Positions 11,828 through 32,000 of a stretch of DNA of 32,000 nucleotides are shown piece by piece. The notes under the pieces were generated by a model that saw only the letters and a program-made list of their open reading frames with translations, did no database searches and was not told where the DNA came from. How positions within the stretch are numbered: the first letter of the stretch is position 1; each line of letters starts with the position of its first letter. Source of the stretch: Xylanibacter ruminicola 23 (GTDB lineage Bacteria; Bacteroidota; Bacteroidia; Bacteroidales; Bacteroidaceae); NCBI RefSeq assembly GCF_000025925.1, contig NC_014033.1, positions 150,001 through 182,000 of the forward strand, read 5' to 3'. The position numbers and the translations under genes are program-made.

Positions 11828-11843
11828 GGCTCTTGGCGAGCTG

Positions 11844-11875
11844 AATGTTCAATGTTCAATGTTCAATGTTCAATG
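11844..11875. repeat. (AATGTTC)x4 tandem heptamer array running into the fkp start codon
   Basis: AATGTTCAATGTTCAATGTTCAATGTTCAATG. Every unit carries an ATG; the last one (11873) is the probable fkp start. Confidence 0.95.
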
Positions 11876-14584: not shown

Positions 14585-14590
14585 TATTTA

Positions 14591-14658
14591 GCAACGGACT
14601 ACAGGACTTTAGGATTTTTACCCGCGATAATCATCTTGTTAGTCCTGTTATCCGTTGC
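14591..14658. repeat. ~70-bp element with terminal inverted repeats, copy 2
   Basis: GCAACGGACTACAGGACTTTAGGATTTTTACCCGCGATAATCATCTTGTTAGTCCTGTTATCCGTTGC. Fills the fkp/GSCFA intergenic gap. Confidence 0.9.
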
Positions 14659-14669
14659 AAAAAGAAAAT

Positions 14670-15563
14670 ATGGAGTTTAGAACGATAGTTGATATAGATG
14701 ACCCTGGGTTTAGGATAGGGGCTTGCGAGGAGATGCTCTTCGTAGGGTCGTGCTTTGCCGATAAGATAGGCGCACGCTTTACTGATGAGAAGTTCCGCAC
14801 CATCGTTAATCCCTTTGGCGTGATGTATAATCCCGCCTCCATCCTCCATACCATCCAGCGCCTCTCCGCTCAGCCCGATTTGAAATCCGTCAAGACTGCA
14901 TTCTTGACCCTCGGCACCAATCACGTTTATATTCTCAATGAAACAGGCGAGATAGTAGATAACTGCCAAAAGCGCCCCCAGTCGCTCTTTACCGAGAAGG
15001 AACTCACGGTAGATGAGTGTGCCGATTACCTGCAGCAGGCCATCGACATCCTGCATGCCGCCAATCCCGATATGCGCATCGTGCTCACCGTTAGCCCCAT
15101 CCGCTATCGCAAATACGGCTACCACGGCTCCCAGCTCTCCAAAGCTACTTTACTCTTGGCCGTCAATAAGGTGATAAAAATGTTCCGCTCGGCTTTGCCG
15201 CTTGGCTCGTCCAAGAATGTTCAATGTTCCGCTCCAGCTCTGCTGGCTTGCAAGGCAAGAATGTTCAATGTTCATTACTTTCCCGCCTACGAAATCATCA
15301 ACGATGAGTTGCGCGATTACCGCTTTTATGCCGATGATATGCTGCACCCCTCATCGCAGGCCGTAGAGTATATCTGGCAGCGATTCTCCGAAGTGTATCT
15401 CAGTCCCGAGGCCAAGGCATTCCTCAAGGAGTGGCAACCCCTCAAGGCCGCGCTTAATCACAAGCCGTTCAATCCCGATTCGGATGAATATCGCATATTT
15501 ATGGATAAAACTATGTTAAAAATTTCCGAGTTGCAAAAAAAATACCCTAACTTTGCAGTATGA
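14670..15563 (+). CDS. GSCFA-domain protein
   Basis: Contains the eponymous GSCFA motif (LFVGSCFADKIG) and the downstream YFPAYEIINDELRDYRFYADDMLHPS block. ATG 14670 is preferred over the track's TTG 14655, which lies inside the TIR repeat. The stop overlaps the next gene's ATG (ATGA). Confidence 0.85.
   Translation: MEFRTIVDIDDPGFRIGACEEMLFVGSCFADKIGARFTDEKFRTIVNPFGVMYNPASILHTIQRLSAQPDLKSVKTAFLTLGTNHVYILNETGEIVDNCQKRPQSLFTEKELTVDECADYLQQAIDILHAANPDMRIVLTVSPIRYRKYGYHGSQLSKATLLLAVNKVIKMFRSALPLGSSKNVQCSAPALLACKARMFNVHYFPAYEIINDELRDYRFYADDMLHPSSQAVEYIWQRFSEVYLSPEAKAFLKEWQPLKAALNHKPFNPDSDEYRIFMDKTMLKISELQKKYPNFAV
15179..15273. repeat. Intragenic repeat, apparently two tandem units (AATGTTC words flanking 27-nt cores), in-frame inside the GSCFA gene
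   Basis: Unit 2 (15213-15273) is AAGAATGTTCAATGTTC-CGCTCCAGCTCTGCTGGCTTGCAAGGC-AAGAATGTTCAATGTTC. Unit 1 (from 15179) has the same AATGTTC-CGCTC start and AAGAATGTTC end with a diverged core. Translated as ...MFRSALPLGSSKNVQCSAPALLACKARMFNVH... Confidence 0.8.
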
Positions 15564-18016
15564 AATACAGTATAGAAAAGGTTACCACGCTCATAGGAGC
15601 GCGACGATATGGAAACACTGAGGCTCAGGTAAGCTGGTTGCTCACCGATAGCCGTAGTCTTTGTTTCCCCGAAGAAACATTGTTTTTCGCCCTGAAAACA
15701 CAGCGTAACGATGGTCATCGTTACATTCAGGACTTGTATAACCGTGGTGTGCGTCAGTTCGTAGTCGAACAGGTGCCCGAGGCTTACGAAACCCTTTATC
15801 CGCAGGCCAACTTTTTGCGAGTGCCTCACACATTGGCAGCCCTGCAGCGTTTGGCCGAGCGCCATCGCGACGAGTTCTCGCTGCCCATCGTAGGTATCAC
15901 CGGCTCTAACGGTAAAACCATGGTCAAGGAGTGGCTTTATCAGTTGCTGTTGCCCTCGCAGCGTATTGTACGTTCGCCTCGCAGCTACAACTCACAGATA
16001 GGTGTGCCCCTCTCGGTATGGTTGCTCAACGAGCAGACCGAGGTTGGAATCTTCGAGGCTGGTATCTCGCAGCCAGGCGAGATGATGGCCCTGCGTGATA
16101 TCATCCAGCCCACCATCGGCGTGCTCACCTCGTTAGGTGCCGCCCATCAGGAGAATTTCCGTTCGATGGAAGAGAAGTGCATGGAGAAACTCGAGCTGAT
16201 GCACGATACCGAGGCCATGGTATATTGCTCTGATAACGATATCGTGAGCCGTTGCATCCGTCGCATGAACTATAAAGGCGAGAAAATCTCGTGGAGCACC
16301 TGCGATCAGCAGGCCGCCTTCTATGTTAAGAGTGTCGAGAACTCGCACATCACCTATATTTGGAAGGAAGAGGAGAACTGCTTCGATATCCCATTTATCG
16401 ACGAGGCCTCAATCGAGGATTGTATCACCTGTGCAGCCGTAGCCTTGCGCTTGGGTCTTACCCCTGGCGATCTGGCCGACCGCATGCCTAAGCTCGAACC
16501 CGTGGCCATGCGCCTCGAGGTTAAAGAAGGCCAGCGTGGTTGCATCCTCATCAACGACTCGTACAACTCTGATATCAACTCACTCGATATCGCCCTCGAT
16601 TTCATGAATCGCCGCGAGGAGTTGAAGAAGCGTACCCTTATCCTTAGCGATATGTTCCAGTCGGGTCTTTCGCCCGAAAAACTCTACGCCCAGGTATCCG
16701 AGTTGGCTGTTAAGCGTGGCATCACCAAGTTTATTGGTATCGGCGCCCAGCTCACTGCCCAGGCCGATAAAATCCAGATTGCCGACAAGCAGTTCTTTGC
16801 CGATGTAAACCACTTCCTGGGTAGCGATGCCTTTACCGGTTTGCGCAACGAGATGATTCTCTTGAAGGGTGCCCGTCCTTTCGGTTTCGATCAGATTACC
16901 GAGCAGCTCGAGCAGAAGGTTCACGAAACCATCCTCGAGGTCAACCTCAATGCCGTGGTCGAGAATCTCAACTACTATCGCTCGTTCATGAAGCCCGAAA
17001 CCAAGATGGTGTGCATGATCAAGGCCGATGCCTATGGAGCAGGAGCCGTCGAGATAGCTAAGACCCTGCAGGATCACCGTGTTGACTACCTCGCAGTGGC
17101 AGTGGCCGACGAGGGTGTTACCCTCCGTAAGGCTGGCATCACCGCCAATATCATGATTATGAACCCCGAGATGACCGCCTTCAAGACCATGTTCGATTAC
17201 GACCTGGAGCCCGAGGTATATAGCTTCCGCTTGCTCGATGCCCTCATCAAGGCAGCCCGCAAGGAGGGTATCACCGGCTGGCCTGTACATATCAAGCTCG
17301 ATACAGGTATGCACCGCTTAGGCTTCGATCCCGAGCAGGATATGGATGAGCTTATCGATCGCCTCACCCATCAGCAGGCTGTTATTCCCCGTTCCGTATT
17401 CAGTCATTTCGTTGGTTCCGACAGCGACGATTTCGATAATTTCTCAACCTTGCAGTTCAAGCGTTTCGAGATGGGCAGTCAGAAACTTCAGGCCGCCTTC
17501 TCGCACAAGATTCTGCGCCATATCGACAACTCTGCCGGCATCGAGCACTTCCCCGATCGCCAGTTGGATATGTGTCGTTTGGGTCTTGGCCTGTATGGTA
17601 TCGATTCGCGCGACAACCGCATTCTCCATACCGTCAGCACCCTCAAGACCACCATTCTGCAGATGCACCAAGTGCCCAAGAGCGAAACCGTGGGCTACAG
17701 TCGCAAGGGCAAGCTGACTCGCGATTCTGTCATCGCTGCCATACCTATTGGCTATGCCGATGGCTTGAACCGTCGTTTGGGCAATCGCCACTGCTACTGT
17801 CTGGTCAACGGTCAGAAAGCTGAGTATGTGGGTAATATCTGTATGGATGTGGCCCTGATTGATGTCACCGACATCCCCTGTCAGGAGGGCGACCAGGTAG
17901 AGATCTTTGGCGAGCACCTGCCCGTTACCGTGCTCAGCGATGTGCTCGAAACCATCCCCTATGAGGTCCTCACCGGCATCAGCAACCGTGTAAAACGCGT
18001 TTATTTCCAGGATTAA
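15560..18016 (+). CDS. Bifunctional UDP-MurNAc-tripeptide--D-Ala-D-Ala ligase (MurF) / alanine racemase (Alr)
   Basis: The N-half has the Mur-ligase P-loop GITGSNGKTMVKEWL. The C-half has the alanine racemase PLP-lysine motif CMIKADAYGAGAVEIA and the conserved tail GISNRVKRVYF. This fusion is a known Bacteroidetes architecture. Confidence 0.92.
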   Translation: MKYSIEKVTTLIGARRYGNTEAQVSWLLTDSRSLCFPEETLFFALKTQRNDGHRYIQDLYNRGVRQFVVEQVPEAYETLYPQANFLRVPHTLAALQRLAERHRDEFSLPIVGITGSNGKTMVKEWLYQLLLPSQRIVRSPRSYNSQIGVPLSVWLLNEQTEVGIFEAGISQPGEMMALRDIIQPTIGVLTSLGAAHQENFRSMEEKCMEKLELMHDTEAMVYCSDNDIVSRCIRRMNYKGEKISWSTCDQQAAFYVKSVENSHITYIWKEEENCFDIPFIDEASIEDCITCAAVALRLGLTPGDLADRMPKLEPVAMRLEVKEGQRGCILINDSYNSDINSLDIALDFMNRREELKKRTLILSDMFQSGLSPEKLYAQVSELAVKRGITKFIGIGAQLTAQADKIQIADKQFFADVNHFLGSDAFTGLRNEMILLKGARPFGFDQITEQLEQKVHETILEVNLNAVVENLNYYRSFMKPETKMVCMIKADAYGAGAVEIAKTLQDHRVDYLAVAVADEGVTLRKAGITANIMIMNPEMTAFKTMFDYDLEPEVYSFRLLDALIKAARKEGITGWPVHIKLDTGMHRLGFDPEQDMDELIDRLTHQQAVIPRSVFSHFVGSDSDDFDNFSTLQFKRFEMGSQKLQAAFSHKILRHIDNSAGIEHFPDRQLDMCRLGLGLYGIDSRDNRILHTVSTLKTTILQMHQVPKSETVGYSRKGKLTRDSVIAAIPIGYADGLNRRLGNRHCYCLVNGQKAEYVGNICMDVALIDVTDIPCQEGDQVEIFGEHLPVTVLSDVLETIPYEVLTGISNRVKRVYFQD

Positions 18017-18043
18017 ACTTAATCCTATATACAACTACAAGTC

Positions 18044-18067
18044 AGGGAGTGCAGTTATGTACTCCCT
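18044..18067. terminator. Hairpin between convergent murF-alr and the 156-aa gene
   Basis: AGGGAGT-GCAGTTATGT-ACTCCCT followed by TTTATTG. Same AGGGAGTG...CACTCCCT stem type as 26455-26482. Confidence 0.6.
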
Positions 18068-18538
18068 TTATTGTATGTAAGCGTCTATCTGTGCGGCAAT
18101 GTCGCCAGCCAGTACGGCACCGTAGCCCACACGGAGCTCGATAGTGGGACGAAGCGGGTCGTTGGTACCGATGATCACAGCATACTCGTCTATGGTGTAG
18201 GGCGTGGCCATGTTCTTTGACATCACGCACTCCAGACTGCTGAGTTTCAGCTCTTCGCCGGCGATAATCGCAATGTCATGGTTGGGATAGAATAGGATAA
18301 GGGCAGGGAGCTCGTTGGCTCGCGAGGCATCCAGCACCACCACGCCGTCGGGTTCTCCGTATCTCTGTTTTGCCTCTTCCACCGTGGCGTAGGTCACCCT
18401 TGGAACAGCCGTCCGCTCCTTGCGCTTGATGATGAAGTAAGCGAAGGGGGCGATAACCAGCAGCAACAGTAAGTACGGTCCAAAGCCAATGGCTAACATA
18501 ATGCCGGCAACGACGGCAAGAATCGTGTTTCGTTTCAT
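18068..18538 (-). CDS. Hypothetical membrane-anchored protein (156 aa)
   Basis: MKRNTILAVVAGIMLAIGFGPYLLLLLVIAPFAYFIIKRK gives two hydrophobic helices followed by a soluble domain. ATG 18538 is preferred over the track start at 18613. No family recognised. Confidence 0.6.
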   Translation of the reverse strand: MKRNTILAVVAGIMLAIGFGPYLLLLLVIAPFAYFIIKRKERTAVPRVTYATVEEAKQRYGEPDGVVVLDASRANELPALILFYPNHDIAIIAGEELKLSSLECVMSKNMATPYTIDEYAVIIGTNDPLRPTIELRVGYGAVLAGDIAAQIDAYIQ

Positions 18539-18581
18539 AAATAGTCTGTTATTTGTCTTTACCGAAAAATCGCTGGCAAAG

Positions 18582-18869
18582 TTACGCATTCTCCTCAAAA
18601 AGCTGTCTATCAAACTCCTCGGAAGAAGTCCAATGTACCTGTCCGTTTCTTAAATTCTCTTCAAACTTATCTATACTTTCAATAGCCTCTTTTTCTGATG
18701 AAGGGCCAATGATGGGATACTTTTCCCAGTTCAGATCGTCAATCCAGTCGTGGACGGCAGTAATGCCATCTACCGAGTTCGAAGCAACGCTTGCTGCTGC
18801 AGCTGTAGGTTCGCATGCCATGTTGGTATTGCTTTCCTCTTCGATTTGTGGATATCTTTTTTCTTTCAT
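18582..18869 (-). CDS. Hypothetical acidic protein (95 aa)
   Basis: MKEKRYPQIEEESNT... from ATG 18869. A TATTTTTG -7 box on the minus strand lies just upstream (plus-strand CAAAAATA near 18887-18894). No family recognised. Confidence 0.5.
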   Translation of the reverse strand: MKEKRYPQIEEESNTNMACEPTAAAASVASNSVDGITAVHDWIDDLNWEKYPIIGPSSEKEAIESIDKFEENLRNGQVHWTSSEEFDRQLFEENA

Positions 18870-18961
18870 TGCGCTTTGTTTTATGGTACAAAAATAAAAC
18901 ATTATTTTGTAATACCAAAGTTTTTACTACTTTTTAAACCTTGCATAAACTATTGTTTCGT

Positions 18962-19100: not shown

Positions 19101-19248
19101 TACACGATACGTCTAATGAATGGCGCCAATAGCTAAAACGAATGGATATGGAAATACAATGCCTGTTTGAACAAGTACTCTATGAGATTGCACGCCACCT
19201 CGACGTGGATGTGAAAGAATTGTTTATGTCATAAAAAACTTATTGAAT

Positions 19249-19896
19249 ATGAACTATTTAATAAATCAGTGTATTTATCCAATTATGGATGGGATTGATG
19301 ATGTAGGACAGGGCTTTTTGGCTGATGGTTATTTTATAACAGCAGCACATATTATTAAGGACTGTCCTAAGTGTTTTGTCAAAATTGGAGGTATTACATA
19401 TAAGCCTATTGAATTTACTCCAGTATTTCAAGGAGAAAGGGATATTTGGAATGATGAGACTCAGCATGATGTTATTATGTATAAGTTTAATAAGGTTCCA
19501 AGTCCTTTGCATTTATCTGCAAGAAAGGTAACATTTGAAGACACTTTAAGAAGCTATTGTATGTCTGTCAGATATGATGATAAGAGTAACCTTTACTACA
19601 ATGAACTGTCTGTAGAAGAAGTTATACTAAAGAATCAAGGTACAGAAAACTATCTATGGTGTGAAGCTAATAGGTTTGAAGGTAGTAGTGGCAGTCCTTT
19701 ACTTATAGATAATGAAGTTGTAGGTATTATGCATAGTGGAAATAATAATGGTATATGTACATTTCTTAAGGTTAGATCCTTCATACTACCACCAGAACCT
19801 AGAAAATATAAACTCTTTGATAAACCTAGTGAGCCTTGGACTCCAGAATATTTCAACAAGAAGGCAGAAGAACAAATTAATGATGCATTTGAATAG
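19249..19896 (+). CDS. Trypsin-like (chymotrypsin-fold, Trypsin_2-type) serine protease with no signal peptide
   Basis: His motif YFITAAHII, Asp in QHDVIMYKF and Ser motif FEGSSGSPLLIDNEVVGIMHSG give a complete catalytic triad in canonical order. No N-terminal hydrophobic signal. ATG 19249 is preferred over TTG 19243. Confidence 0.75.
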   Translation: MNYLINQCIYPIMDGIDDVGQGFLADGYFITAAHIIKDCPKCFVKIGGITYKPIEFTPVFQGERDIWNDETQHDVIMYKFNKVPSPLHLSARKVTFEDTLRSYCMSVRYDDKSNLYYNELSVEEVILKNQGTENYLWCEANRFEGSSGSPLLIDNEVVGIMHSGNNNGICTFLKVRSFILPPEPRKYKLFDKPSEPWTPEYFNKKAEEQINDAFE

Positions 19897-20193: not shown

Positions 20194-20616
20194 ATGGGTA
20201 CTGATGGGCATGGTATAACAACATTGGTTGCCTTTAATGGCTGTCCTCTTAGATGTAGATATTGTCTAAATCCTGAATGCCTAAATACGAGTAAGAAAGT
20301 AAGACGTTTGCTTCCAGAAGAAGTAATGGACGAATTAAGAAAAGACGAAATGTTTTATTTAGCTACTAAAGGCGGAGTGACCTTTGGTGGTGGAGAACCT
20401 TTGCTGAATAGCCAATATATTAAGGATATTCTAGAATTGGGTGCCAGGAGTTGAAATGTTACAGTAGAAACCTCACTGAATGTTCCAAGAAAGCATCTAA
20501 AACTGTTATTGCCATATATAAATGAACACATCGTGGATATATTGGAGTATCCTGGATTCGATATAGTATGGGCAAAACATTGTGAAGACACAAATTGGTA
20601 TCCTAAATTTGAATAG
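20194..20616 (+). pseudogene. Radical-SAM activase-like gene (PflA/NrdG type) with an in-frame TGA and 3' truncation
   Basis: GTDGHGITTLVAFNGCPLRCRYCLNPEC (CxxxCxxC cluster motif) and GGVTFGGGEPLL (SAM-binding GGE). The TGA at 20452-20454 is followed in the same frame by NVTVETSLNVPRKHLKLLLPYINEHIVDIL... up to TAG 20614-20616. It aligns by eye to the first ~140 residues of PflA-type activases; the remaining ~100 residues are missing. Confidence 0.65.
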
Positions 20617-20658
20617 TTGTTGCGAAAAAATAGTATACTTAAAATTAAAAATATTATT

Positions 20659-21450
20659 ATGAGAACGAGCATTGTATTGTTTGTGATGGTGGCCGTAGTT
20701 ATCACTGCGTGTGTGCCAGGGGAAAAAGCCCCTATGCAAAAAGGTATCTTAAAATGCGAATCATCGTTCTTTGGAGATAGCACTGCCGTCTTTATGGCGA
20801 ATACCTTGCAAAATGGGTATAAAATATCAATCATCCACAATAAGCAGTTGGACTTAATACATTTCGAAAGAGGTGATTCTATAAGCCAATATTGTGCAAT
20901 TCATAAGCTCCCTTTCGACCTAAGATATTATGAAGAGGACTCAATCGGAGTCTTCCAAACCGAGTTGAACATCCCGGTTTTAAGATTAGATACATTGGGA
21001 GGGACTAAATATGCTCCTGATATGTTCTTTATGGACGTAAACTTTGATGGAGAAGAAGATTTTATTGTTGCACATGAAGGATATAATAGGACTTATTATG
21101 CCTGTTTCGATTTAGTTAATGGTAACAGATATGGTTCGTGCCCTGGGCTTCTCGAATCAAACAATGAACCGCCTTACAATAATATTGTCTCTGGTATTTA
21201 TGAACAGCCATCCTATACCGTCTTTGACCGAAAGAAAAAAGAAATCTACATAAAGGAAACTATGGGATGCTGTTCCTATTATGAAACATGGGCAAAATAC
21301 TTTGAAGGAGACAATTATGGTAATGAAGCAAAAGTAAAGATCACCAAGGAAGTACATCACGATTGGTGGGCTGATGGGACAGAGCATGTTGAAATATATA
21401 AGCTGATTAATGACTCCTTAAAATTGGTTGAAAACAAAGTCGTTGAGTAA
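20659..21450 (+). CDS. Lipoprotein, paralog family member 1 (FG-GAP-like FDG motif)
   Basis: Lipoprotein signal MRTSIVLFVMVAVVITAC. Motif DMFFMDVNFDGEEDFIVAH is shared with 23418-24365 and the C-terminus of 24729-26120. ATG 20659 is preferred over TTG 20617. Confidence 0.75.
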   Translation: MRTSIVLFVMVAVVITACVPGEKAPMQKGILKCESSFFGDSTAVFMANTLQNGYKISIIHNKQLDLIHFERGDSISQYCAIHKLPFDLRYYEEDSIGVFQTELNIPVLRLDTLGGTKYAPDMFFMDVNFDGEEDFIVAHEGYNRTYYACFDLVNGNRYGSCPGLLESNNEPPYNNIVSGIYEQPSYTVFDRKKKEIYIKETMGCCSYYETWAKYFEGDNYGNEAKVKITKEVHHDWWADGTEHVEIYKLINDSLKLVENKVVE

Positions 21451-21535
21451 ATACTCAGTGTTCAAAGGGATGCCCATTGCCATGTTTTTCTAATCGCAAG
21501 CCTTGCGGAGATTTGGAAGTGTGGAGATAGTTTTG

Positions 21536-21543
21536 TAATTTTG
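21536..21543 (+). promoter_or_regulatory. -7 promoter box TAATTTTG for the FtsZ-like operon
   Basis: TAnnTTTG match 25 nt upstream of ATG 21568, preceded by a small hairpin (CGCAA-GCC-TTGCG, ~21495-21507) after the upstream lipoprotein gene. Confidence 0.5.
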
Positions 21544-21567
21544 TAGCCAAATTAAATATATTGGATT

Positions 21568-22836
21568 ATGGGTGATACTTTACCATTTTTTGAGAACGAG
21601 ATTAAAGATACGATGCAAGGCATCATCAAAGTTGTAGGCGTTGGCGGAGGTGGCTGCAACGCTGTACGTAATATGTGCAACGAGGGCGTGGTGGGTGTTT
21701 CTTTTGCGGCCTGCAACACGGATAGTCAGTCGTTGAAAGGCTCGCCTGTTCCAGTAAAAGTCCTGATGGGTGAAGGCTTGGGAGCTGGCGGTGATCCTGA
21801 AATCGGCAAAGCTGAGGCTGAAAAGAGCTTGGACTCTCTTAAGAAGATTCTAAGCGATGGTACTAAGATGGTGTTTATCACTGCCAGTATGGGTGGTGGT
21901 ACAGGCACAGGCTCTGCGCCTGTTGTTGCCCAGGTGGCAAAAGAGTTGAATTTGCTTACTGTTGGTGTGGTGACGATTCCTTTCTATTTTGAGAAAAAAC
22001 AGAAGATTGTCAAGGCCTTGAAGGGCGTGGATGAATTGAGGAAATATGTGGATGCTATCTTGATTATCAATAATGAACGTCTGTGTGATGTCTATTCTGA
22101 TTCTGACATCTCGCTGAAAGAGGCATTTGGTAGGGCTGACAATATTTTGAAGGATGCCGTAAAAGGTATCTCGGAGTTAATCACAGTGCATAGTGAGGGC
22201 TCTATCAATCTTGACTTCCGTGATGTGGAAGCTACGATGAAGAATGGAGGAGGAGCTATCATGGCAATGGGACGTGCTAGTGGTGATCATCGTGTGGAAA
22301 AAGCGATTCTTGATGCACTGAATTCCCCTTTGCTTTATGGCAATGACATTGGCAAGGCCAAACGTATCCTATTTAATATCTATGCCAGTGAGGAGCATCC
22401 CATCTTCGTGAGGGAGATGCAGGAGATTGATGACTTCTTTGATCAGCTGGATCCTAATATCAGCGTTATCTGGGGTACTTCAACGGATGATACCCTGGGT
22501 GAAGATGCCAAGGTGACGATTCTAGCTACTGGATTGGAGGATGATATGCGCAAGGAGGTGAAATCGAATGTACATCGTACTGATGATGATTTCTATGAGG
22601 AATTGATTCCAATGCTATATAAGCCTGCAAAAAAGCCAACGCCAGCGAAAGTTCTTGTTCAGGAATTACCTTTTGAGGTAGAACCTGCCCCTGAGCCAGA
22701 ACCAGCTGTGGAGGAGCCAAAAGTGGAGGAAGAATCTGAGCTAGAACCTGTGAAAGAACAGGTGATAACAGAGTCGCCTACGGTTAGTAGATGGAAAACG
22801 TGGTTGAATAACATTATGAAGGATGTGACAGAATGA
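21568..22836 (+). CDS. Divergent FtsZ paralog (tubulin/FtsZ GTPase, full length)
   Basis: IKVVGVGGGGCNAV, NTDSQSL, GLGAGGDPEIG, tubulin signature MGGGTGTGSAPVVA, VTIPFYFEKKQK, T7 loop INLDFRDV, C-terminal domain ...NSPLL...VTILATG, a P/E-rich acidic linker, and the terminal peptide SRWKTWLNNIMKDVTE. Confidence 0.9.
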   Translation: MGDTLPFFENEIKDTMQGIIKVVGVGGGGCNAVRNMCNEGVVGVSFAACNTDSQSLKGSPVPVKVLMGEGLGAGGDPEIGKAEAEKSLDSLKKILSDGTKMVFITASMGGGTGTGSAPVVAQVAKELNLLTVGVVTIPFYFEKKQKIVKALKGVDELRKYVDAILIINNERLCDVYSDSDISLKEAFGRADNILKDAVKGISELITVHSEGSINLDFRDVEATMKNGGGAIMAMGRASGDHRVEKAILDALNSPLLYGNDIGKAKRILFNIYASEEHPIFVREMQEIDDFFDQLDPNISVIWGTSTDDTLGEDAKVTILATGLEDDMRKEVKSNVHRTDDDFYEELIPMLYKPAKKPTPAKVLVQELPFEVEPAPEPEPAVEEPKVEEESELEPVKEQVITESPTVSRWKTWLNNIMKDVTE

Positions 22837-23414
22837 ATGAGCTGCTAACACCAGAAGAGCGGGCACTGGAGGTAAAAAGACTCGTGAACCAGCTGCAGGC
22901 AGAGGGTAGGACAGACCTTTTGCTACATGCCATTGGTGTGCCCTTGCTTGAAGAACTGAGGATTGAGGCAGCCAAGGGGCGTTTGAGTCGACTGGTAATA
23001 ACAAAGGATTATCGTTTCATCTTAGAGGATTATCAAAAGGAGGTGGAGCTGCAGCCTGTTCATAAGGCTGTCTATCTGTTGTTCCTAGCGCATCCTGAAG
23101 GTATTGAATTTAAACGTTTGTTTGATTATCGTGATGAGTTACTTCGTTATTATATGGCAACAGGCAAGATGATGGATAAGGAGAAGGTGATAGAAAGTGT
23201 AGATCATCTAGTAAATCCTCTCGACAATGCCATCAACGAGAAGTGCTCACGTATCAAAAAGGTGTTTCTTGATCTTATGGATGTATATACTGCTAGTTAT
23301 TATATAATTAGTAGCCATACCCAGAAACAGTTTTCTGGTTCAGATCGCATATGGTATCAAAGATTGAAAAATATAACACTTCCAAGGGAATTAGTAATAG
23401 ATTATAATAGATGA
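22833..23414 (+). CDS. Unknown 193-aa cytoplasmic protein translationally coupled to the FtsZ paralog
   Basis: Its ATG overlaps the FtsZ-like stop (ATGA at 22833-22836). Predicted soluble and helix-rich. The segment VELQPVHKAVYLLFLAHPEGIEFKRLFDYRDELL weakly recalls an OmpR/PhoB-type winged helix (weak, by eye). Confidence 0.7.
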   Translation: MNELLTPEERALEVKRLVNQLQAEGRTDLLLHAIGVPLLEELRIEAAKGRLSRLVITKDYRFILEDYQKEVELQPVHKAVYLLFLAHPEGIEFKRLFDYRDELLRYYMATGKMMDKEKVIESVDHLVNPLDNAINEKCSRIKKVFLDLMDVYTASYYIISSHTQKQFSGSDRIWYQRLKNITLPRELVIDYNR

Positions 23415-23417
23415 AAG

Positions 23418-24365
23418 ATGAAGAAGATTTTGATATATTTAGTATTCCTACTTCTCCTTGGTTGTGGTAATAACAAGCAAGCGCGAGATGTCCAGAAAGA
23501 GACGAAAACAACTGGAGATTGTTCGTTCAAGAAGGAATATGTGTCTGATTCTACACCACACTGGGTGGAGAGGTTGAACGATATACCACTCCCGGATTAT
23601 ATGCAGGGCGATTCTTTGATTGATGTTTACTTCAAATATACCCAGGCAGTCAAGGGATATGAGGTGACAGGCAGATGGATGCCATACGATAAGTTAGCAG
23701 AAACAGGAAATGTGGTTGTCAACTTCCATCATAAGGAAACAGGAACTGAATTTCAGTACTTTGGCGAAAAATACCATTCATTCGATACTGATGATATTTC
23801 TTTTGCCAAGGATTTCAAAGGGCATAAAAATGGAGATATACACTATTTCAACTATACTTCCCCTGATACGATTGATATATACAAGGAGTATAATGATAAC
23901 TCGCCTATTGGCTATTACTCGTCATTTCAGTTCTTAGATGTAGATTTTGATGGGAATGATGAACTTCTCATATCTGATATGTGTAAAGGACGGGCTGGCA
24001 ACAATTATGAGGTGTATAAACTTTCTAAGGATGGCTTGCAGAAAGTGACCTATATGCCTTTAGGCGGATTGACGAATATGGACAAGATTGATCTTAAGAA
24101 TAAGACCATAACGATTTATCAGAATGATGGAGCCTATGATGAAGCTGAATTCTTTTTCTCATTTAAGAAGCGGCGAGTTGCAATTAAAGATATTCCAAAA
24201 TTCTATTCAGCCAGTGCAAGTTATTTTGACTTTGACAAATATAACAAGGAACTTGGCTCACCTTTCGTTTTAGATTCTATCAAGGAATACACGAAAACTG
24301 ATAGCGAACGACGTGTGACATATCAGGTTCGTGGTAGTAGGTTAGTGAAAAAAAGAAGAAACTGA
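23418..24365 (+). CDS. Lipoprotein, paralog family member 2 (FG-GAP-like FDG motif)
   Basis: Lipoprotein signal MKKILIYLVFLLLLGC. Motif SSFQFLDVDFDGNDELLISD. Starts 3 nt after the preceding stop. Confidence 0.8.
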   Translation: MKKILIYLVFLLLLGCGNNKQARDVQKETKTTGDCSFKKEYVSDSTPHWVERLNDIPLPDYMQGDSLIDVYFKYTQAVKGYEVTGRWMPYDKLAETGNVVVNFHHKETGTEFQYFGEKYHSFDTDDISFAKDFKGHKNGDIHYFNYTSPDTIDIYKEYNDNSPIGYYSSFQFLDVDFDGNDELLISDMCKGRAGNNYEVYKLSKDGLQKVTYMPLGGLTNMDKIDLKNKTITIYQNDGAYDEAEFFFSFKKRRVAIKDIPKFYSASASYFDFDKYNKELGSPFVLDSIKEYTKTDSERRVTYQVRGSRLVKKRRN

Positions 24366-24389
24366 TAATAATATAATAGACAAGAAAAG

Positions 24390-24692
24390 ATGGAAAAATT
24401 TTATTGGTCAAAACTTATATTGAACAAAAACGAAGCTGCTACAAAAAGTACCTTGATTAAATACATACTTGGTATAAAAGATAGTTCATCAATTACAGTT
24501 GAACAACTAAAATGCTTGACGCAAGAAGTTATTGATGGTACTGATCAGAATTATGATTTGAAGGTGTTTTTGGAATCTATAACAGATTTTGAAGAGGCTG
24601 CTAGTTGGTTAAGTAAAAATGCCTATTCTTTAGATATGTCAAGAAACCTTCTGGGGATAATAAAGCATCCTAAGGGCAAGAGAGGTCTTTAA
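24390..24692 (+). CDS. Unknown 100-aa protein
   Basis: Open frame in operon position (24-nt and 36-nt gaps to its neighbours), no signal peptide, no recognised motif. Confidence 0.55.
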   Translation: MEKFYWSKLILNKNEAATKSTLIKYILGIKDSSSITVEQLKCLTQEVIDGTDQNYDLKVFLESITDFEEAASWLSKNAYSLDMSRNLLGIIKHPKGKRGL

Positions 24693-24728
24693 TATGTTAA
24701 TTATAAGGACGTTCAATTAGATTTAATT

Positions 24729-26120
24729 ATGGGGAAGAGGGAGATAAAGTTTATCATAGTTGCCGTTGTAGCTATAATGATAACTTGCCTGGCATTAATG
24801 CTGATATGCAATCAGATCGTTGTGAACAATGCAGAGGGTAAGGTGTTCTCTAACATCGATAGCATCAAGTATAATAAGGTGGGACTATTGTTGGGTACCA
24901 CTCCGCAGGCTCGCATAACAAGAATTTCAAACCAGTTCTTTACCTATCGTATTGATGCAGCTGAGCAGCTGTACAAGGCAGGGAAGATTGAGCAGATATT
25001 GATTAGTGGCGATGAGAATAGTCTTGATGGTGTCAATGAGCCTGAATGTATGAGGGATTCGTTGGTTGCGAGGGGGGTGCCATCGAGTGCAATAATCTTG
25101 GATGGTAAGGGGTATAGGACAATAAACTCTATTGTTGATGCTAACAAGGTGTTTGGTTTGAAGAGTTTTACGATAATATCTCAGGAGTTCCATAATGAGC
25201 GAGCCATTTACCAGGCAGAGCATCTTGGGCTGGATGTGGAGAACATTCAGGCATATAATGCAGAAATGCCAAAAGCAAGACGGGCGTTTCTTACCACAAT
25301 CCGCGAGTATTTTGCAAGGGTTAAGTTGTTCATCGATTTGTGTTTTACAGATAGCAATGATCTCAGTCCACAAAACTCAAGGAAACTTGTAAAATGGAAG
25401 TCTGTACCTTGTCATCGAATTCCAAAAGAGTTTGCAGATAGTTTGAAAGTAGATAGATACAGCAAGGATAGTATCCTCGTTGTCTATAGACAGCCGGTTA
25501 ATGGATATAAAGTGAAAGCTATTGCCAAGTTGGCTGTATCTGATGATGATATTATCTCTGCAGATTTTACTTTTACGAAAGGCGGACAATCATTTAAGCT
25601 CCATACACAATGCTTTGGAGATACAGCGTTCTGTAAAGGTAGGCTGGACTTCCAATTTGAGAATCCAAAGTTATTCAAAAAGTATAAGAACAAGACTATA
25701 AAGGCTAATTATCATTATTATAAAGATGAAGATCAGTTGATGCCGATGTATACACCATTCTTCTTTATGGACTTGGATTTCGACGGAAAAGAGGAATTGG
25801 TTATAGTGCACAAGTCTATGGCTGTTAGATATCACGATGGTTACGATGTGTATCGTATTGTAGAAGGACGTCCTGTGCTCATAGACTATCCTCCATATAA
25901 TGATAATAAGGATGGCTGGGGATTTGGTATGACCGACTACCCTGAGTTTGATTTTAAGAAGAAAACAATATCATGCCCATATCCTGAAGGTGAACTAAAG
26001 TGGGCTGGCCGTACCATCTATGGCGTCAGTAAAAAGCATAAAGATACAGTGGTGGTGAATGGTAAGAAACATCTATTTAACCATATGGAAGTGATTAAGG
26101 AGATAAAGTTTGATGAATGA
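24729..26120 (+). CDS. SanA/YdcF (DUF218) membrane protein fused to a C-terminal copy of the FDG paralog domain
   Basis: N-terminal TM helix (FIIVAVVAIMITCLALMLIC). Residues ~40-215 are collinear with E. coli SanA (LLLGTTP..., ILISGDENSLDGVNEPECMRDSLVARGVP, ILDGKGYRTINSIV, TIISQEFHNERAIY, IREYFARVKLFIDL). The C-terminal ~250 aa carry TPFFFMDLDFDGKEELVIVH and YDVYRI blocks like the two lipoproteins. Confidence 0.85.
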   Translation: MGKREIKFIIVAVVAIMITCLALMLICNQIVVNNAEGKVFSNIDSIKYNKVGLLLGTTPQARITRISNQFFTYRIDAAEQLYKAGKIEQILISGDENSLDGVNEPECMRDSLVARGVPSSAIILDGKGYRTINSIVDANKVFGLKSFTIISQEFHNERAIYQAEHLGLDVENIQAYNAEMPKARRAFLTTIREYFARVKLFIDLCFTDSNDLSPQNSRKLVKWKSVPCHRIPKEFADSLKVDRYSKDSILVVYRQPVNGYKVKAIAKLAVSDDDIISADFTFTKGGQSFKLHTQCFGDTAFCKGRLDFQFENPKLFKKYKNKTIKANYHYYKDEDQLMPMYTPFFFMDLDFDGKEELVIVHKSMAVRYHDGYDVYRIVEGRPVLIDYPPYNDNKDGWGFGMTDYPEFDFKKKTISCPYPEGELKWAGRTIYGVSKKHKDTVVVNGKKHLFNHMEVIKEIKFDE

Positions 26121-26286: not shown

Positions 26287-26390
26287 GACCATTTTCCTGA
26301 CGTCAGGAAAACGATACCAATGCCTAGATGCTATGGGATAGCTCATGGTATTCTGAGGACCATTTTGCTGACGCTAGCAAATTGGTATCA
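26287..26390. repeat. Two direct 33-bp repeats, each containing a hairpin or palindrome
   Basis: GACCATTTTCCTGACGTCAGGAAAACGATACCA (26287-26319) and GACCATTTTGCTGACGCTAGCAAATTGGTATCA (26358-26390). The first contains the perfect 20-bp palindrome TTTTCCTGACGTCAGGAAAA. GATACCA and TGGTATC at the two ends are complementary. Confidence 0.85.
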
Positions 26391-26654: not shown

Positions 26655-27209
26655 TTAGTCTCCGATAGGCTCGTGGCTTCCACCACCGGTATTGCCACCG
26701 CCGCTATTCCCGCCGCCTCCGGTGTTTCCACCGGTATTGCCGCCCTGGCTGCTACCACTGCCGTTGGTGGTCTTCTCACCATCGCCGCTCAGCAGACTCT
26801 CGGCGTTTACAAACTCGGCCTTCTTCAGGAACTCTCGACTCGAGATATTCATCTCCTGCTCCTGCTCAGGCATAAATCGGATGTGGAGAGCCTTCAGGTT
26901 CTTACCCACATTAAACTCCTCCTTCTTGGGAGCACCACCGGGCTCGTTCTCCAGGGTAGTGAAGAAGGTGCCCAGACCGTCGATCTTCACTCGCTTCGAC
27001 TCCAGCAGCATCTCCACCAGACAGCTGCGGAACTTCTCCAGCACACCAAACACTACATCCTGCGTATAAACGCTACCGTGCTCGCTGATGTGCTTGGCCA
27101 GCTTGCGGGTGTTCAGGATTTCAATACTCTTGCTGTGGGCAAACCACTTGCCAAATACCTGCGACTTGTTGTTTTTGTTCTGTCGCAACTCATAAAAAAT
27201 CTTTGCCAT
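26655..27209 (-). CDS. HU-family (Bacteroidetes HU_HIG-like) DNA-binding protein with a Gly/Asn-rich tail
   Basis: MAKIFYELRQNKNNKSQVFGKWFAHSKSIEILNTRKLAKHISEHGSVYTQDVVFGVLEKF...KIDGLGTFF is typical of the long Bacteroidetes HU-like proteins. The C-terminus is the low-complexity SSQGGNTGGNTGGGGNSGGGNTGGGS. Confidence 0.8.
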   Translation of the reverse strand: MAKIFYELRQNKNNKSQVFGKWFAHSKSIEILNTRKLAKHISEHGSVYTQDVVFGVLEKFRSCLVEMLLESKRVKIDGLGTFFTTLENEPGGAPKKEEFNVGKNLKALHIRFMPEQEQEMNISSREFLKKAEFVNAESLLSGDGEKTTNGSGSSQGGNTGGNTGGGGNSGGGNTGGGSHEPIGD

Positions 27210-27699: not shown

Positions 27700-27726
27700 A
27701 AATGTACTAATGTACCAATGTACCAT
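27700..27726. repeat. 27-bp GTACC-word block AAATGTACTAATGTACCAATGTACCAT, copy 2
   Basis: Identical to 18962-18988. Confidence 0.95.
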
Positions 27727-27814
27727 CGTGCATATAATTTTGGTTTTAACATTAATTACACTTCTAAACCCGTAACATTTTGGTTTTCTGCATACTTATA
27801 TGTAGAAAAAGCAT

Positions 27815-27822
27815 TATTTTTG
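27815..27822 (+). promoter_or_regulatory. -7 promoter box TATTTTTG for the AlbA_2 gene
   Basis: TAnnTTTG match 10 nt upstream of ATG 27832, which would give a very short leader. Confidence 0.4.
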
Positions 27823-27831
27823 CAAACGATT

Positions 27832-29394
27832 ATGACAACTGAAGAGATAAGAGCTTTGCTCAATGATATTGAGAGTGATAGAGTTGAACGAACAATTTCG
27901 ACTACTAACACTGATAAGTTTGGACAGGCAATCTGTGCATTTGCTAATGATTTGCCTGACCATCGTTTGCCCGGATATCTTTTCCTTGGCGTAAAGGATG
28001 ATGGAACTGTAACAGACCTTAACGTAACGGATGAACTATTGAAGAATATTGCTGCTATACGTACTGATGGCAATATTCAACCGCAACCATCAATGACTGT
28101 TGAGAAAGTATCGATGGACGAAGGTGATATTGTTATGGTAAGGGTAGAACCATCAGTGTTTCCTCCTGTCAGGTATAAGGGGCGAATATGGATTCGCATT
28201 GGTCCACGTAAGGGTGTGGCTAACGAAGATGATGAAAGCATCCTGATGGAGAAACGTCGCACAAATGTTACTTCATTTGACGCTTCACCCTGCATCAATG
28301 CGACCATCGACGATTTGGATTTGCAGAAGTTTAAGCATTACTATCTGCCCAAAGCAATGACGGATGACGAAATAGAGGAAGATCGCAAGGAAGGACGAAC
28401 TGTGAAAGAGCAGATGGCTTCGTTCGGTTTCTTTGATACAAAATATGATTGCCCTACGAATGCGGGTATGCTTTTCTTTGCCAAGAATCTGCGAAGGTTT
28501 ATCCCTGGGGCATATATCCAGTATGTGCGCTTTGCAGGTAAAGATCGTGCGGGCGATATTATGACGGAGCATGAGTTTAAAAGCAATTTGTGTACAACCT
28601 TGGAAGAGTTGGATACTTTTGTGGAGACAACTATTGCCAATCGTCGTCCGATACCAGTAAGCCCCACCCGTGAAGATCCTTTTGTAGATTATCCTTACTG
28701 GGCAACTCGTGAGCTGTTGATGAATGCTATATGTCATCGCGACTATACCAGTAATGGTCCAATACAGTTCTACCAGTATGATGACCGCATCGAAATTATG
28801 AATCATGGTGGACTGTATGGAAAAGCAAACGAACAGAATTTTCCAAAGGTTAATGATTATCGCAATATCATTGTGGCCGAAGGCATGAAGGTGCTAGGCT
28901 TTGTGAATCGTCATAGCCGAGGAGTGCAGAGGGTACAAAGGGAACTTATGGCTAATGAGAATGGCGAGGCTGAGTATGACTTTAGTTACCAGACGGCTGT
29001 GATGGTGAAAGAAATGAAGTCACCTCTCGGTGAGCGGGCCTTGCAGGAAGCAATAGCTCGAGGTTTTGTGACGGAAAATGGAGAAAAACGGTCAGATTTG
29101 ACCATTTCTGAAGATAAAAATGGTCACAAAAATGGTCACAAAAATGGTCATGAGGGTGACCGGAAAACATCACAAAAAACACCTAAAATGAAGGTTTCTA
29201 AGTTCCCAGCTCCTATTGTAGAGCAGGTGTACAAGTCCCTTAGGTTAAATCGTAAGGCAAAATACTCGTGGCTTCAGGATAATCTTGGAGTTAGTGAGGC
29301 AACAATAAAACGTGCCATTAGCGATTTGAAGGAACTAGGATACATCAACAAGGAACACTCGAAAATTAAGGGCGAGTGGCAACTACTAAAATAG
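27832..29394 (+). CDS. AlbA_2 (Schlafen-like) plus HATPase_c_4 putative DNA-binding/ATP-binding regulator (RecG-like annotation class)
   Basis: N-terminal ESDRVERTISTTNTDKFGQAICAFANDLPDHRLPGYLFLGVKDDGTV (AlbA_2-type). Central RELLMNAICHRDY signature (HATPase_c_4). C-terminal HTH-like SEATIKRAISDLKELGYI. ATG 27832 (MTTEEIRALL) is preferred over the track start at 27718, which runs through a repeat. Confidence 0.75.
   Translation: MTTEEIRALLNDIESDRVERTISTTNTDKFGQAICAFANDLPDHRLPGYLFLGVKDDGTVTDLNVTDELLKNIAAIRTDGNIQPQPSMTVEKVSMDEGDIVMVRVEPSVFPPVRYKGRIWIRIGPRKGVANEDDESILMEKRRTNVTSFDASPCINATIDDLDLQKFKHYYLPKAMTDDEIEEDRKEGRTVKEQMASFGFFDTKYDCPTNAGMLFFAKNLRRFIPGAYIQYVRFAGKDRAGDIMTEHEFKSNLCTTLEELDTFVETTIANRRPIPVSPTREDPFVDYPYWATRELLMNAICHRDYTSNGPIQFYQYDDRIEIMNHGGLYGKANEQNFPKVNDYRNIIVAEGMKVLGFVNRHSRGVQRVQRELMANENGEAEYDFSYQTAVMVKEMKSPLGERALQEAIARGFVTENGEKRSDLTISEDKNGHKNGHKNGHEGDRKTSQKTPKMKVSKFPAPIVEQVYKSLRLNRKAKYSWLQDNLGVSEATIKRAISDLKELGYINKEHSKIKGEWQLLK
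29116..29150 (+). repeat. 12-nt tandem repeat (AAAAATGGTCAC)x3 encoding KNGHKNGHKNGH
   Basis: AAAAATGGTCACAAAAATGGTCACAAAAATGGTCA inside the AlbA_2 gene. Contains the AATGGTC word seen in the fkp intragenic element. Confidence 0.9.
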
Positions 29395-31862: not shown

Positions 31863-32000
31863 ATGGCAGAGGAATACTTACTTTACGATGTAGATGGTAC
31901 AGCTGCAAAAGTAATGCGCTATGTAAAGCATAGAATAAGTAGTGGCTTGTATGAATACTTGTTGCAAATTCTGTTGCCTTATTCAAGCAGGGTTCAGCAG
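31863..32000 (+). CDS. Hypothetical protein, 5' fragment (runs off the window)
   Basis: ATG 31863 starts 5 nt after the previous stop and is open to the window end: MAEEYLLYDVDGTAAKVMRYVKHRISSGLYEYLLQILLPYSSRVQQ. Confidence 0.35.
   Translation, partial: MAEEYLLYDVDGTAAKVMRYVKHRISSGLYEYLLQILLPYSSRVQQ

Follow-up and report, generated by a model that had tools for sequence, protein, structure and literature searches.

An ftsZ gene outside the division gene cluster

We analysed a stretch of 32,000 nucleotides from Xylanibacter ruminicola 23 (NC_014033.1, positions 150,001 to 182,000; referred to as the window), in which an ftsZ gene is directly followed by a gene for a protein of 193 amino acids, here named p193. 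Three more open reading frames (ORFs) continue the series on the plus strand and encode a lipoprotein, a protein of 100 amino acids and a SanA/DUF218 membrane protein (Table 1). The gaps between successive ORFs are -4, 3, 24 and 36 nt. Coordinates and gaps agree with an earlier, sequence-only reading of the window, in which the five genes were taken for an operon headed by a divergent second FtsZ and wired to envelope-facing proteins. Homologs of ftsA, ftsQ, dnaB and the mur genes of the division and cell wall (dcw) cluster were sought in the window and none was found; the sole Mur gene is a murF-alr fusion. As had been stated, ftsZ thus lies outside a division and cell wall cluster.

By every sequence criterion the first ORF qualifies as a member of the FtsZ family. 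It matches the Pfam families Tubulin (PF00091; 1.1e-38, 133.9 bits, cut-off 33) and FtsZ_C (PF12327; 4.7e-16, 59.3 bits, cut-off 27), and it scores 326.2 bits with the NCBIfam model TIGR00065 (ftsZ), whose equivalog cut-off is 295.2. FtsZ sequences of the PDB were matched at 4.6e-72. The tubulin signature GGGTGTG occupies residues 109-115 and NLDFRDVE, with the T7 synergy loop N-x-D-x-x-D, residues 214-221; G-box and T7 Asp residues are intact. C-terminal to the GTPase core and FtsZ_C, the protein has an acidic linker rich in Pro and Glu and, at its end, an amphipathic helix. It is a complete FtsZ, as first read, with all of the motifs quoted at the time, and the presence of FtsZ_C together with a score above the equivalog cut-off also confirms that it is not of the FtsZl or TubZ/PhuZ type.

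The ratio of nonsynonymous to synonymous substitution rates (dN/dS) of ftsZ is 0.03-0.04, with a dS of 0.53 to the nearest relative, which points to strong purifying selection. The proteins encoded by ftsZ and p193 are identical to ADE83695.1 and ADE82515.1 of X. ruminicola 23 and likewise to GJG32548.1 and GJG32549.1 (GCA_019973335.1). The term "divergent" was justified insofar as the flagged motif deviations exist, but it overstates the case for a protein whose core is ~50% identical to FtsZ of S. aureus and B. subtilis and whose gene has so low a dN/dS.

A separate clade of Bacteroidales FtsZ

Metagenomes and a GTDB set with one genome for each species supplied relatives of the window FtsZ (57-98% identity). 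A neighbour-joining tree of 364 columns, a distance tree without support values, parted a group of sequences that includes the window FtsZ, here termed clade B, from the ftsA-linked Bacteroidales FtsZ. Clade B carries the motifs GGGGC, FEK and F[RC]DV, where canonical Bacteroidales FtsZ has GGGGG(NAV), FEG and NLDFADV. All Prevotellaceae relatives of the window FtsZ share the three clade motifs. A few distant clade-B sequences ("Parabacteroides sp. PFB2-10" and the cluster representatives P0247, P0251, P0253 and P0255) retain GGGGG, yet they have FEK and F[RC]DV. The positions that had been flagged as deviant (GGGGC, FEKK and FRDV) are clade signatures, because they are common to the whole clade in the motif and tree comparison. 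The deviations are therefore real, but they are not peculiarities of this gene, as the proposal of a paralog under altered constraint had implied. A degenerate paralog was also considered as their source and ruled out, since the deviations are clade-wide and dN/dS is 0.03.

The C-terminus differs as well. At the C-terminal end of clade-B proteins, acidic residues follow an amphipathic helix, and the window FtsZ ends in …SRWKTWLNNIMKDVTE. The peptide P-x-[FY]-[KLN]-R is absent from it; the tail reads …SPTVSRWKTWLNNIMKDVTE, compared with IPTYKR, TPVFKR and PAYKRR in canonical relatives. In general, canonical Bacteroidales FtsZ proteins terminate in a P-x-[YF]-K-R peptide or in …ITF. The hydrophobic moment of the window tail is 0.60, compared with 0.57 for the membrane-targeting helix of E. 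coli FtsA.

Neither ftsA nor ftsQ was found within 10 kb of ftsZ at ~55 clade-B loci, wherever the context was readable, and these genes are present at nearly all canonical loci that extend far enough. The cluster murG-murC-ftsQ-ftsA-ftsZ occurs in Dysgonomonas, Parabacteroides, Proteiniphilum, Azobacteroides, Paludibacteraceae and Bacteroides, including B. thetaiotaomicron (Q8A262). A metagenome scan with an FtsA profile returned canonical ftsA-ftsZ loci only, and the representatives that were looked up belonged to Bacteroides species. Within clade B the p193-linked sequences form one sub-clade of the tree, and a basal set (S. paludivivens and others, 473-504 amino acids) has no adjacent p193. 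Tree, motifs and gene context thus bear out the earlier suggestion of a lineage apart from the canonical ftsA-linked Bacteroidales FtsZ, and the window FtsZ represents a distinct Bacteroidales clade of rumen and gut Prevotellaceae (Xylanibacter, Segatella and relatives).

Extent of the conserved cassette and its predicted promoter

The window was compared with the two nearest relatives, L009 and L052 (L numbers denote the loci collected here). DNA identity is 87-89% from ~95 nt 5' of ftsZ to the stop codon of p193, and the DNA outside this span is unrelated. The same boundaries were obtained when two cassettes within single metagenome-assembled genomes (MAGs) were compared (L028 with L033, L013 with L052). 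Judged by these borders, the conserved unit consists of ftsZ and p193, two genes and not five, with a predicted promoter of its own.

The conserved 5' region contains a small inverted repeat, CGCAA-GCC-TTGCG (21495-21507), and overlapping boxes of the Bacteroidetes -7 type (TAnnTTTG), namely TAGTTTTG at 21528-21535 and TAATTTTG at 21536-21543. The latter is located 24 nt before the ATG and is the promoter-like box that had already been noticed ahead of ftsZ. The promoter scan used TAnnTTTG; a sigma-70 scan is not informative for Bacteroidetes. Since the next plus-strand TAnnTTTG of the window follows only at 27735, the five genes are plausibly co-transcribed in this strain, and all of them may be read from the ftsZ promoter.

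The partner gene p193

A p193 homolog lies directly 3' of ftsZ in ~45 GTDB species, mostly within a few nt, and 5' of ftsZ in two cases; a p193-like gene adjoins a distant clade-B ftsZ, too (L092). The first downstream gene that had been tied to ftsZ is therefore a conserved partner across these species. The protein search yielded 6522 homologs of p193. The motifs PxxKAxYLLFLxHPEG and NxINEKCxRI are invariant in the alignment, and dN/dS is 0.07. No match to p193 was obtained in Pfam, NCBIfam, PHROG, PADLOC or the PDB sequences (profile searches; single-sequence scan for NCBIfam).

Paralogs of p193 with 35-45% identity exist as stand-alone genes of 190 codons or fused to DUF6804 or DUF1810 domains. 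Several genomes have such paralogs a few kb 5' of ftsZ, and plasmid pE2-28 of Prevotella sp. E2-28 carries them as well. What is conserved is a C-terminal domain of 140 amino acids, preceded by membrane DUF6804, by DUF1810 or by a coiled-coil N-terminus, or standing alone in the 190-residue form. The usual block consists of a p193-like gene, a gene for a protein of ~140 amino acids beginning "MTDYEY…", dnaB or a gene for a DnaB_C protein, and then ftsZ and p193. In the MAG RUG14503 both p193 copies are interrupted (L013 10331-10863; L052 11278-11789), and the one in L052 lacks 64 nt that are present in the window; these copies are either assembly errors or decaying duplicates.

Proposed function of the ftsZ-p193 pair

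The best explanation, to which we assign a probability of about 60%, is that the pair encodes a functional division FtsZ of Prevotellaceae type together with a dedicated partner. Clade-B FtsZ would have left the ftsQ-ftsA-ftsZ cluster and joined p193 in a two-gene cassette. The protein would polymerise as a GTPase and form the division ring like any FtsZ. Its tethering or regulation would proceed through the amphipathic tail, which would contact the membrane itself or act by way of p193, and not through the canonical FtsA-binding peptide. From gene linkage alone, we infer for p193 the part of a clade-specific FtsZ-associated factor.

Support for a role in division comes from the genus Segatella. 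S. copri HDC01 and S. sinica HDE06 formed filaments when the annotated ftsZ was inhibited by antisense; the two full-length ftsZ genes of S. copri DSM 18205T are redundant, and both must be silenced to block division; S. sanihominis RHB01 carries a complete ftsZ_1 and a truncated ftsZ_2 (bioRxiv 10.64898/2026.04.17.719208). An ordinary division role is the default for a Prevotellaceae FtsZ because the Segatella ftsZ knock-down blocks division, and by analogy these knock-downs suggest such a role for the window gene rather than a specialised one in the envelope or in defence. No description of a Bacteroidales FtsZ paralog, of the clade tail or of p193 was found in the literature, the nearest report being this preprint on the Segatella duplicates. 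This is in line with the sequence-only reading, which could match the genes to no described system.

Several observations weigh against this explanation. All sequences of the canonical set have Asn in the T7 loop, and about half of the p193-linked members have D, K or A there, suggesting that the constraint has changed; the window FtsZ still has N. An AlphaFold model of p193 (18 sequences of 70-99% identity) reached a predicted local distance difference test (pLDDT) score of 51, and Foldseek gave no meaningful match with this poor model. The antisense target 11-mers of the preprint match none of the loci collected here, so that the knocked-down Segatella ftsZ cannot be placed in either clade. 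The remaining points concern the status of the gene as the sole or an additional copy. The G+C content at third codon positions (GC3) is 0.45 for ftsZ and 0.39 for p193, compared with 0.54-0.67 for the upstream core genes, and thus matches the surrounding island and not the core. Two MAGs, RUG14503 and PUUB57_bin.008, carry two cassettes each with different flanks; the cassette contigs of PUUB57_bin.008 have similar coverage (32 and 31). In Segatella hominis HDD12 the cassette is located on a 317-kb circular extrachromosomal element (NZ_CP137560.1), one of the "large extrachromosomal elements" of Blanco-Miguez et al. 2023 (PMC10635906). There, a clade-B ftsZ (64% identical) and a p193 homolog (62% identical) are divergently transcribed, 1-5 kb from genes for ParA and RepB. 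Finally, Prevotella sp. oral taxon 299 (NC_022111.1) has a canonical murG-murC-ftsQ-ftsA-ftsZ-yqeY cluster. Prevotellaceae are therefore not uniformly rid of the canonical ftsZ, and a canonical copy is possible elsewhere in X. ruminicola. The record in question (strain F0039; locus L176 covers its positions 1539928-1558809) has 1.77 Mb and is labelled "plasmid"; it looks like a chromosome.

These points fit an accessory copy, that is, a horizontally acquired second ftsZ that is redundant or conditional, the other copy being a dnaB-side clade-B gene or the canonical ftsA-ftsZ. We put this alternative somewhat below even odds. It concerns copy status and is compatible with a function in division. 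The wholly different flanks of the cassette in close relatives and the ftsZ duplication documented in Segatella (bioRxiv 10.64898/2026.04.17.719208) speak for it too. Opposed to it are strong purifying selection, the FtsZ protein identical in two X. ruminicola strains and the dS of 0.53 to the nearest relative, which argues against a very recent transfer; the MAG duplicates may moreover be binning artefacts. No second X. ruminicola ftsZ turned up, in searches that could not reliably have shown one, and we hold the presence of a further copy in this genome to be a serious prospect that falls short of an even chance. The contexts in relatives point both ways. The cassette has a native GC3 of 0.60-0.73 in L005, L011, L016 and L022, and it lies downstream of a full-length dnaB (503-522 amino acids) in L005, L011, L016 and L020; native GC3 and the position beside dnaB give it the look of a resident housekeeping gene. 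L009, L013 and L052 instead have a DnaB_C-only helicase of 337-346 amino acids beside the cassette, which hints that the block was duplicated or mobilised.

A role of the pair in replicon maintenance or DNA segregation, similar to TubZ-TubR, was also considered. The filament would move DNA, and p193 would be a DNA-binding adaptor recognising the FtsZ tail. The proximity of the S. hominis pair to ParA and RepB is in agreement with this, as are the dnaB or DnaB_C-only helicase genes adjoining the pair in many genomes, the small inverted repeat in the conserved upstream region and the helix-rich conserved core of p193, in which a helix-turn-helix (HTH)-like sequence pattern is seen by eye only. 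However, its score above the equivalog cut-off marks the protein as a genuine FtsZ and not as a divergent TubZ/PhuZ, the flanks of the cassette contain no iterated centromere-like repeats, p193 matches no HTH model, and most copies are chromosomal with native composition. We regard segregation as improbable.

Smaller still is the chance that the pair acts in biological conflicts, with an extra or variant FtsZ and p193 buffering the cell against FtsZ-targeting toxins or phage inhibitors. Variable regions around the cassette do hold genes for DarT, Cas9, kinase-AAA and Hsp70-like proteins, and an ADP-ribosylglycohydrolase gene directly upstream of ftsZ as well as SIR2-like and ARH-like ORFs (N-terminal sequence only) were found. 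Ting et al. in 2018 reportedly described effectors that act on FtsZ by ADP-ribosylation and are paired with ARH immunity proteins. The window itself contains a Schlafen/AlbA_2 ATPase and a trypsin-like protease, and p193-like domains have variable N-terminal fusions and, on plasmid pE2-28, stand beside ARH and kinase genes. Core genes, however, often anchor variable hot spots, so that position alone may explain the association; no defence model matches any of the five genes, and purifying selection and the near-universal presence of the pair in the clade fit a housekeeping gene.

Neighbouring genes and the low-GC island

The three genes downstream of p193 do not share its conservation. The lipoprotein and 100-codon genes adjoin ftsZ only in near-identical copies of the window locus (L001 and L002), and the upstream 277-codon gene is not beside ftsZ in the other species examined. 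N-terminal fragments of SanA occur near the cassette in L009/L010, L044 and L052, but their distance and orientation vary. The fifth ORF is a SanA(DUF218) fusion, as had been recognised: it has an N-terminal membrane anchor and a DUF218 domain (PF02698, 1.8e-18), matches NF008092 at 4.4e-39 below the equivalog cut-off, and carries an extra C-terminal XAC2610-like domain foreign to the SanA family. The 277-residue ORF product, the 315-residue lipoprotein and the C-terminal half of the SanA protein are mutually paralogous (BLASTP E ~1e-8), share the motif F[ML]D[VL][ND]FDG..E and score 27.9, 26.6 and 18.4 bits, respectively, with the XAC2610_fam model NF047539, below its cut-off of 35. XAC2610 is an immunity protein against a peptidoglycan-hydrolase effector, so the three domains could represent a series of orphan immunity genes whose products act in the periplasm.

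Because these neighbours are paralogs of one family on both sides of the cassette, the supposed wiring of FtsZ to three extracytoplasmic proteins is a matter of juxtaposition. The five-gene arrangement is local to the strain and has no conserved function. That the five genes form one module, in which a polymerising GTPase and three envelope-facing proteins remodel the envelope or interfere with division, perhaps in defence or stress, is highly improbable: the shared strand, the short gaps of -4 to 36 nt, the single -7 box cluster ahead of them with its plausible co-transcription in this strain, and the recurrence of SanA fragments in the wider neighbourhood favour it, but clade ftsZ genes occur in other genomes without the lipoprotein, 100-codon and SanA neighbours, no other species examined has the lipoprotein or the 100-codon gene next to ftsZ, the link to SanA is loose, homology stops at the p193 stop codon, the envelope proteins have paralogs upstream of ftsZ, too, and none of the five genes has a match in PADLOC-DB 2.0, where only the flanking trypsin-like and Schlafen/AlbA_2 proteins match.

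The cassette of X. ruminicola lies inside a low-GC variable island. Core genes, among them those for a TonB receptor, BipA, a SpoU methylase and the murF-alr fusion, extend up to ~18.6 kb with ~52% GC. The island begins past murF-alr and runs from 18600 to the window end at 32000, with 32-45% GC. The AT-rich setting and non-core codon choice ascribed to ftsZ are thereby confirmed. The murF-alr fusion (15560-18016), the last core gene before the island, is a single ORF of 818 codons that joins a MurF-like Mur ligase with alanine racemase and matches the annotation of P. gingivalis PG1097. Besides several ORFs without matches, the island holds a gene for a trypsin-like peptidase (19243-19896) with weak PADLOC RT-Protease_XI matches, an 86-residue remnant of a glycyl-radical-enzyme activase (20194-20454) and, on the minus strand, a gene for an HU-HIG protein (26655-27209), whose GC3 of 0.70 is unlike that of its neighbours. 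A protein of 558 amino acids with Schlafen/AlbA_2, HATPase_c_4 and HTH domains is encoded at 27718-29394 and matches a pAgo-associated PADLOC model at 1.8e-25. Just 3' of the SanA fusion, two direct repeats of 33 nt, 71 nt apart (26287-26390), each contain the palindrome TTTTCCTGACGTCAGGAAAA; possible roles are those of terminators or, at a sub-boundary of the island, of a recombination or binding site. An Rfam scan of 18-28 kb gave no match, and no tRNA gene was found in the window.

Table 1. Features of the window and of the loci compared with it (positions without a locus name refer to the window).
Feature	Location	Strand	Remarks
XAC2610-like lipoprotein, upstream (277-aa ORF)	20617-21450	+	Public gene call starts at 20659; outside the cassette
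Conserved 5' region of the cassette	21473-21567	+	DNA homology with L009 and L052 starts here
ftsZ	21568-22836	+	422 aa; protein identical to X. ruminicola 23 ADE83695.1
FtsZ C-terminal tail, …PTVSRWKTWLNNIMKDVTE	22780-22833	+	In place of the canonical P-x-[FY]-[KL]-R FtsA/ZipA-binding peptide (comparison of C-termini)
p193, 193-aa partner	22833-23414	+	Start overlaps the ftsZ stop (ATGA)
XAC2610-like lipoprotein, 315 aa	23418-24365	+	Lipobox LLGC, motif FLDVDFDGNDE; NF047539 2.4e-06
100-aa ORF	24390-24692	+	No family match (Pfam, NCBIfam, PADLOC, PHROGs); strain-specific neighbour
SanA/DUF218 membrane protein with C-terminal XAC2610-like domain	24729-26120	+	DUF218 1.8e-18; NF008092 4e-39
XAC2610-like domains	20617-21450, 23418-24365, 25350-26120		Two in lipoproteins, one fused to SanA
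DnaB_C-only helicases	L009 414-1427; L013 7133-8173; L052 7073-8110		
p193-like paralogs and fusions	L005 4218-5627; L007 4368-5627; L036 11228-12217; L011 7345-7917		
ADP-ribosylation genes beside the cassette or p193-like genes	L009 1832-2785; L052 716-2218; L007 2131-3585; L178 2852-3781		
S. hominis ftsZ/p193/ParA/RepB region	L177 (NZ_CP137560.1 31096-56091), locus positions 11174-18940		

Significance

Chromosomes, islands and large extrachromosomal elements can all harbour the cassette. It is tempting, though still doubtful, to see in ftsZ and p193 a self-contained, transferable cytoskeletal cassette, made independent of FtsA by a membrane- or adaptor-binding tail of its own and a new partner, which has duplicated or replaced the dcw ftsZ in some Prevotellaceae. 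Its occurrence in islands and on an extrachromosomal element offers an explanation for the ftsZ duplications in Segatella. Prevotella, Segatella and Xylanibacter are the dominant bacteria of many communities in gut and rumen, and their cell biology is almost unstudied. If the proposal is correct, an undescribed mode of Z-ring anchoring or regulation operates in a major gut and rumen lineage, and p193 is the founding member of a new family of FtsZ-associated proteins. Should the linkage to ftsA indeed have been abandoned, the otherwise universal FtsA/ZipA-binding peptide been replaced by an amphipathic helix and a partner have co-evolved, the textbook model of Z-ring tethering would fail for Prevotellaceae, and p193 would be a candidate division factor and a lineage-specific target for the antisense approaches under development. 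As a five-gene envelope module the locus has no significance; what stays of interest is a lineage-specific FtsZ cassette with a tightly coupled, uncharacterised partner.

Comparison with known systems

The analogy to the known anchors and accessories of the Z-ring (the FtsA amphipathic helix, SepF and ZapA-D) is one of position and shape only: the moment of the tail is FtsA-like and p193 stands where an FtsZ accessory would be encoded. No sequence or structural similarity of these proteins to p193 was found, and membrane binding of the tail is a proposal.

With TubZ-TubR and PhuZ the pair shares a GTPase of the tubulin/FtsZ family and a small partner gene, sometimes in an extrachromosomal location, and in both cases the GTPase tail is the expected docking site of the partner. 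TubZ and PhuZ are, however, highly divergent and without FtsZ_C, whereas the window FtsZ has this domain and passes the equivalog threshold, and the centromere repeats and the winged HTH of TubZ-TubR have no detectable counterpart at the cassette or in p193. FtsZl-1 and FtsZl-2 (Makarova and Koonin 2010, PMC2875224) likewise belong to the FtsZ superfamily, are encoded outside the dcw cluster and have conserved neighbours with no part in division. Both are distant, Tubulin_2-like families devoid of the FtsZ C-terminal domain; the window FtsZ has both domains and ~50% identity to FtsZ. Archaea with FtsZ1 and FtsZ2 also have two FtsZ lineages in one taxon, and in cdrS-ftsZ2 a small gene is co-transcribed with one ftsZ. 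This is a different domain of life, CdrS is a ribbon-helix-helix protein of 60 amino acids, unrelated to p193, and nothing in the present data points to two FtsZs that are both obligatory and non-redundant.

Closest are the FtsZ proteins of the Bacteroidales themselves. Canonical dcw FtsZ (Q8A262; oral taxon 299) has the same fold and domains, GGGTGTG, the T7 Asp, and a disordered linker with a short C-terminal peptide, at a core identity of ~50-56%. The window gene differs in that it has no link to ftsA or ftsQ, in GGGGC, FEK and F[RC]DV instead of GGGGG, FEG and FADV, in a clade-B tail (…RWKxWLNNxMKxVTE) instead of the P-x-[YF]-K-R or …ITF end, in the p193 partner, with which it is predicted to be co-translated, and in its separate clade in the tree. 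Segatella ftsZ_1 and ftsZ_2 of S. copri DSM 18205T and S. sanihominis RHB01 come from the same bacterial family and demonstrate that more than one full-length ftsZ per genome is possible; the preprint (bioRxiv 10.64898/2026.04.17.719208) gives no gene context, partner gene or clade for them.

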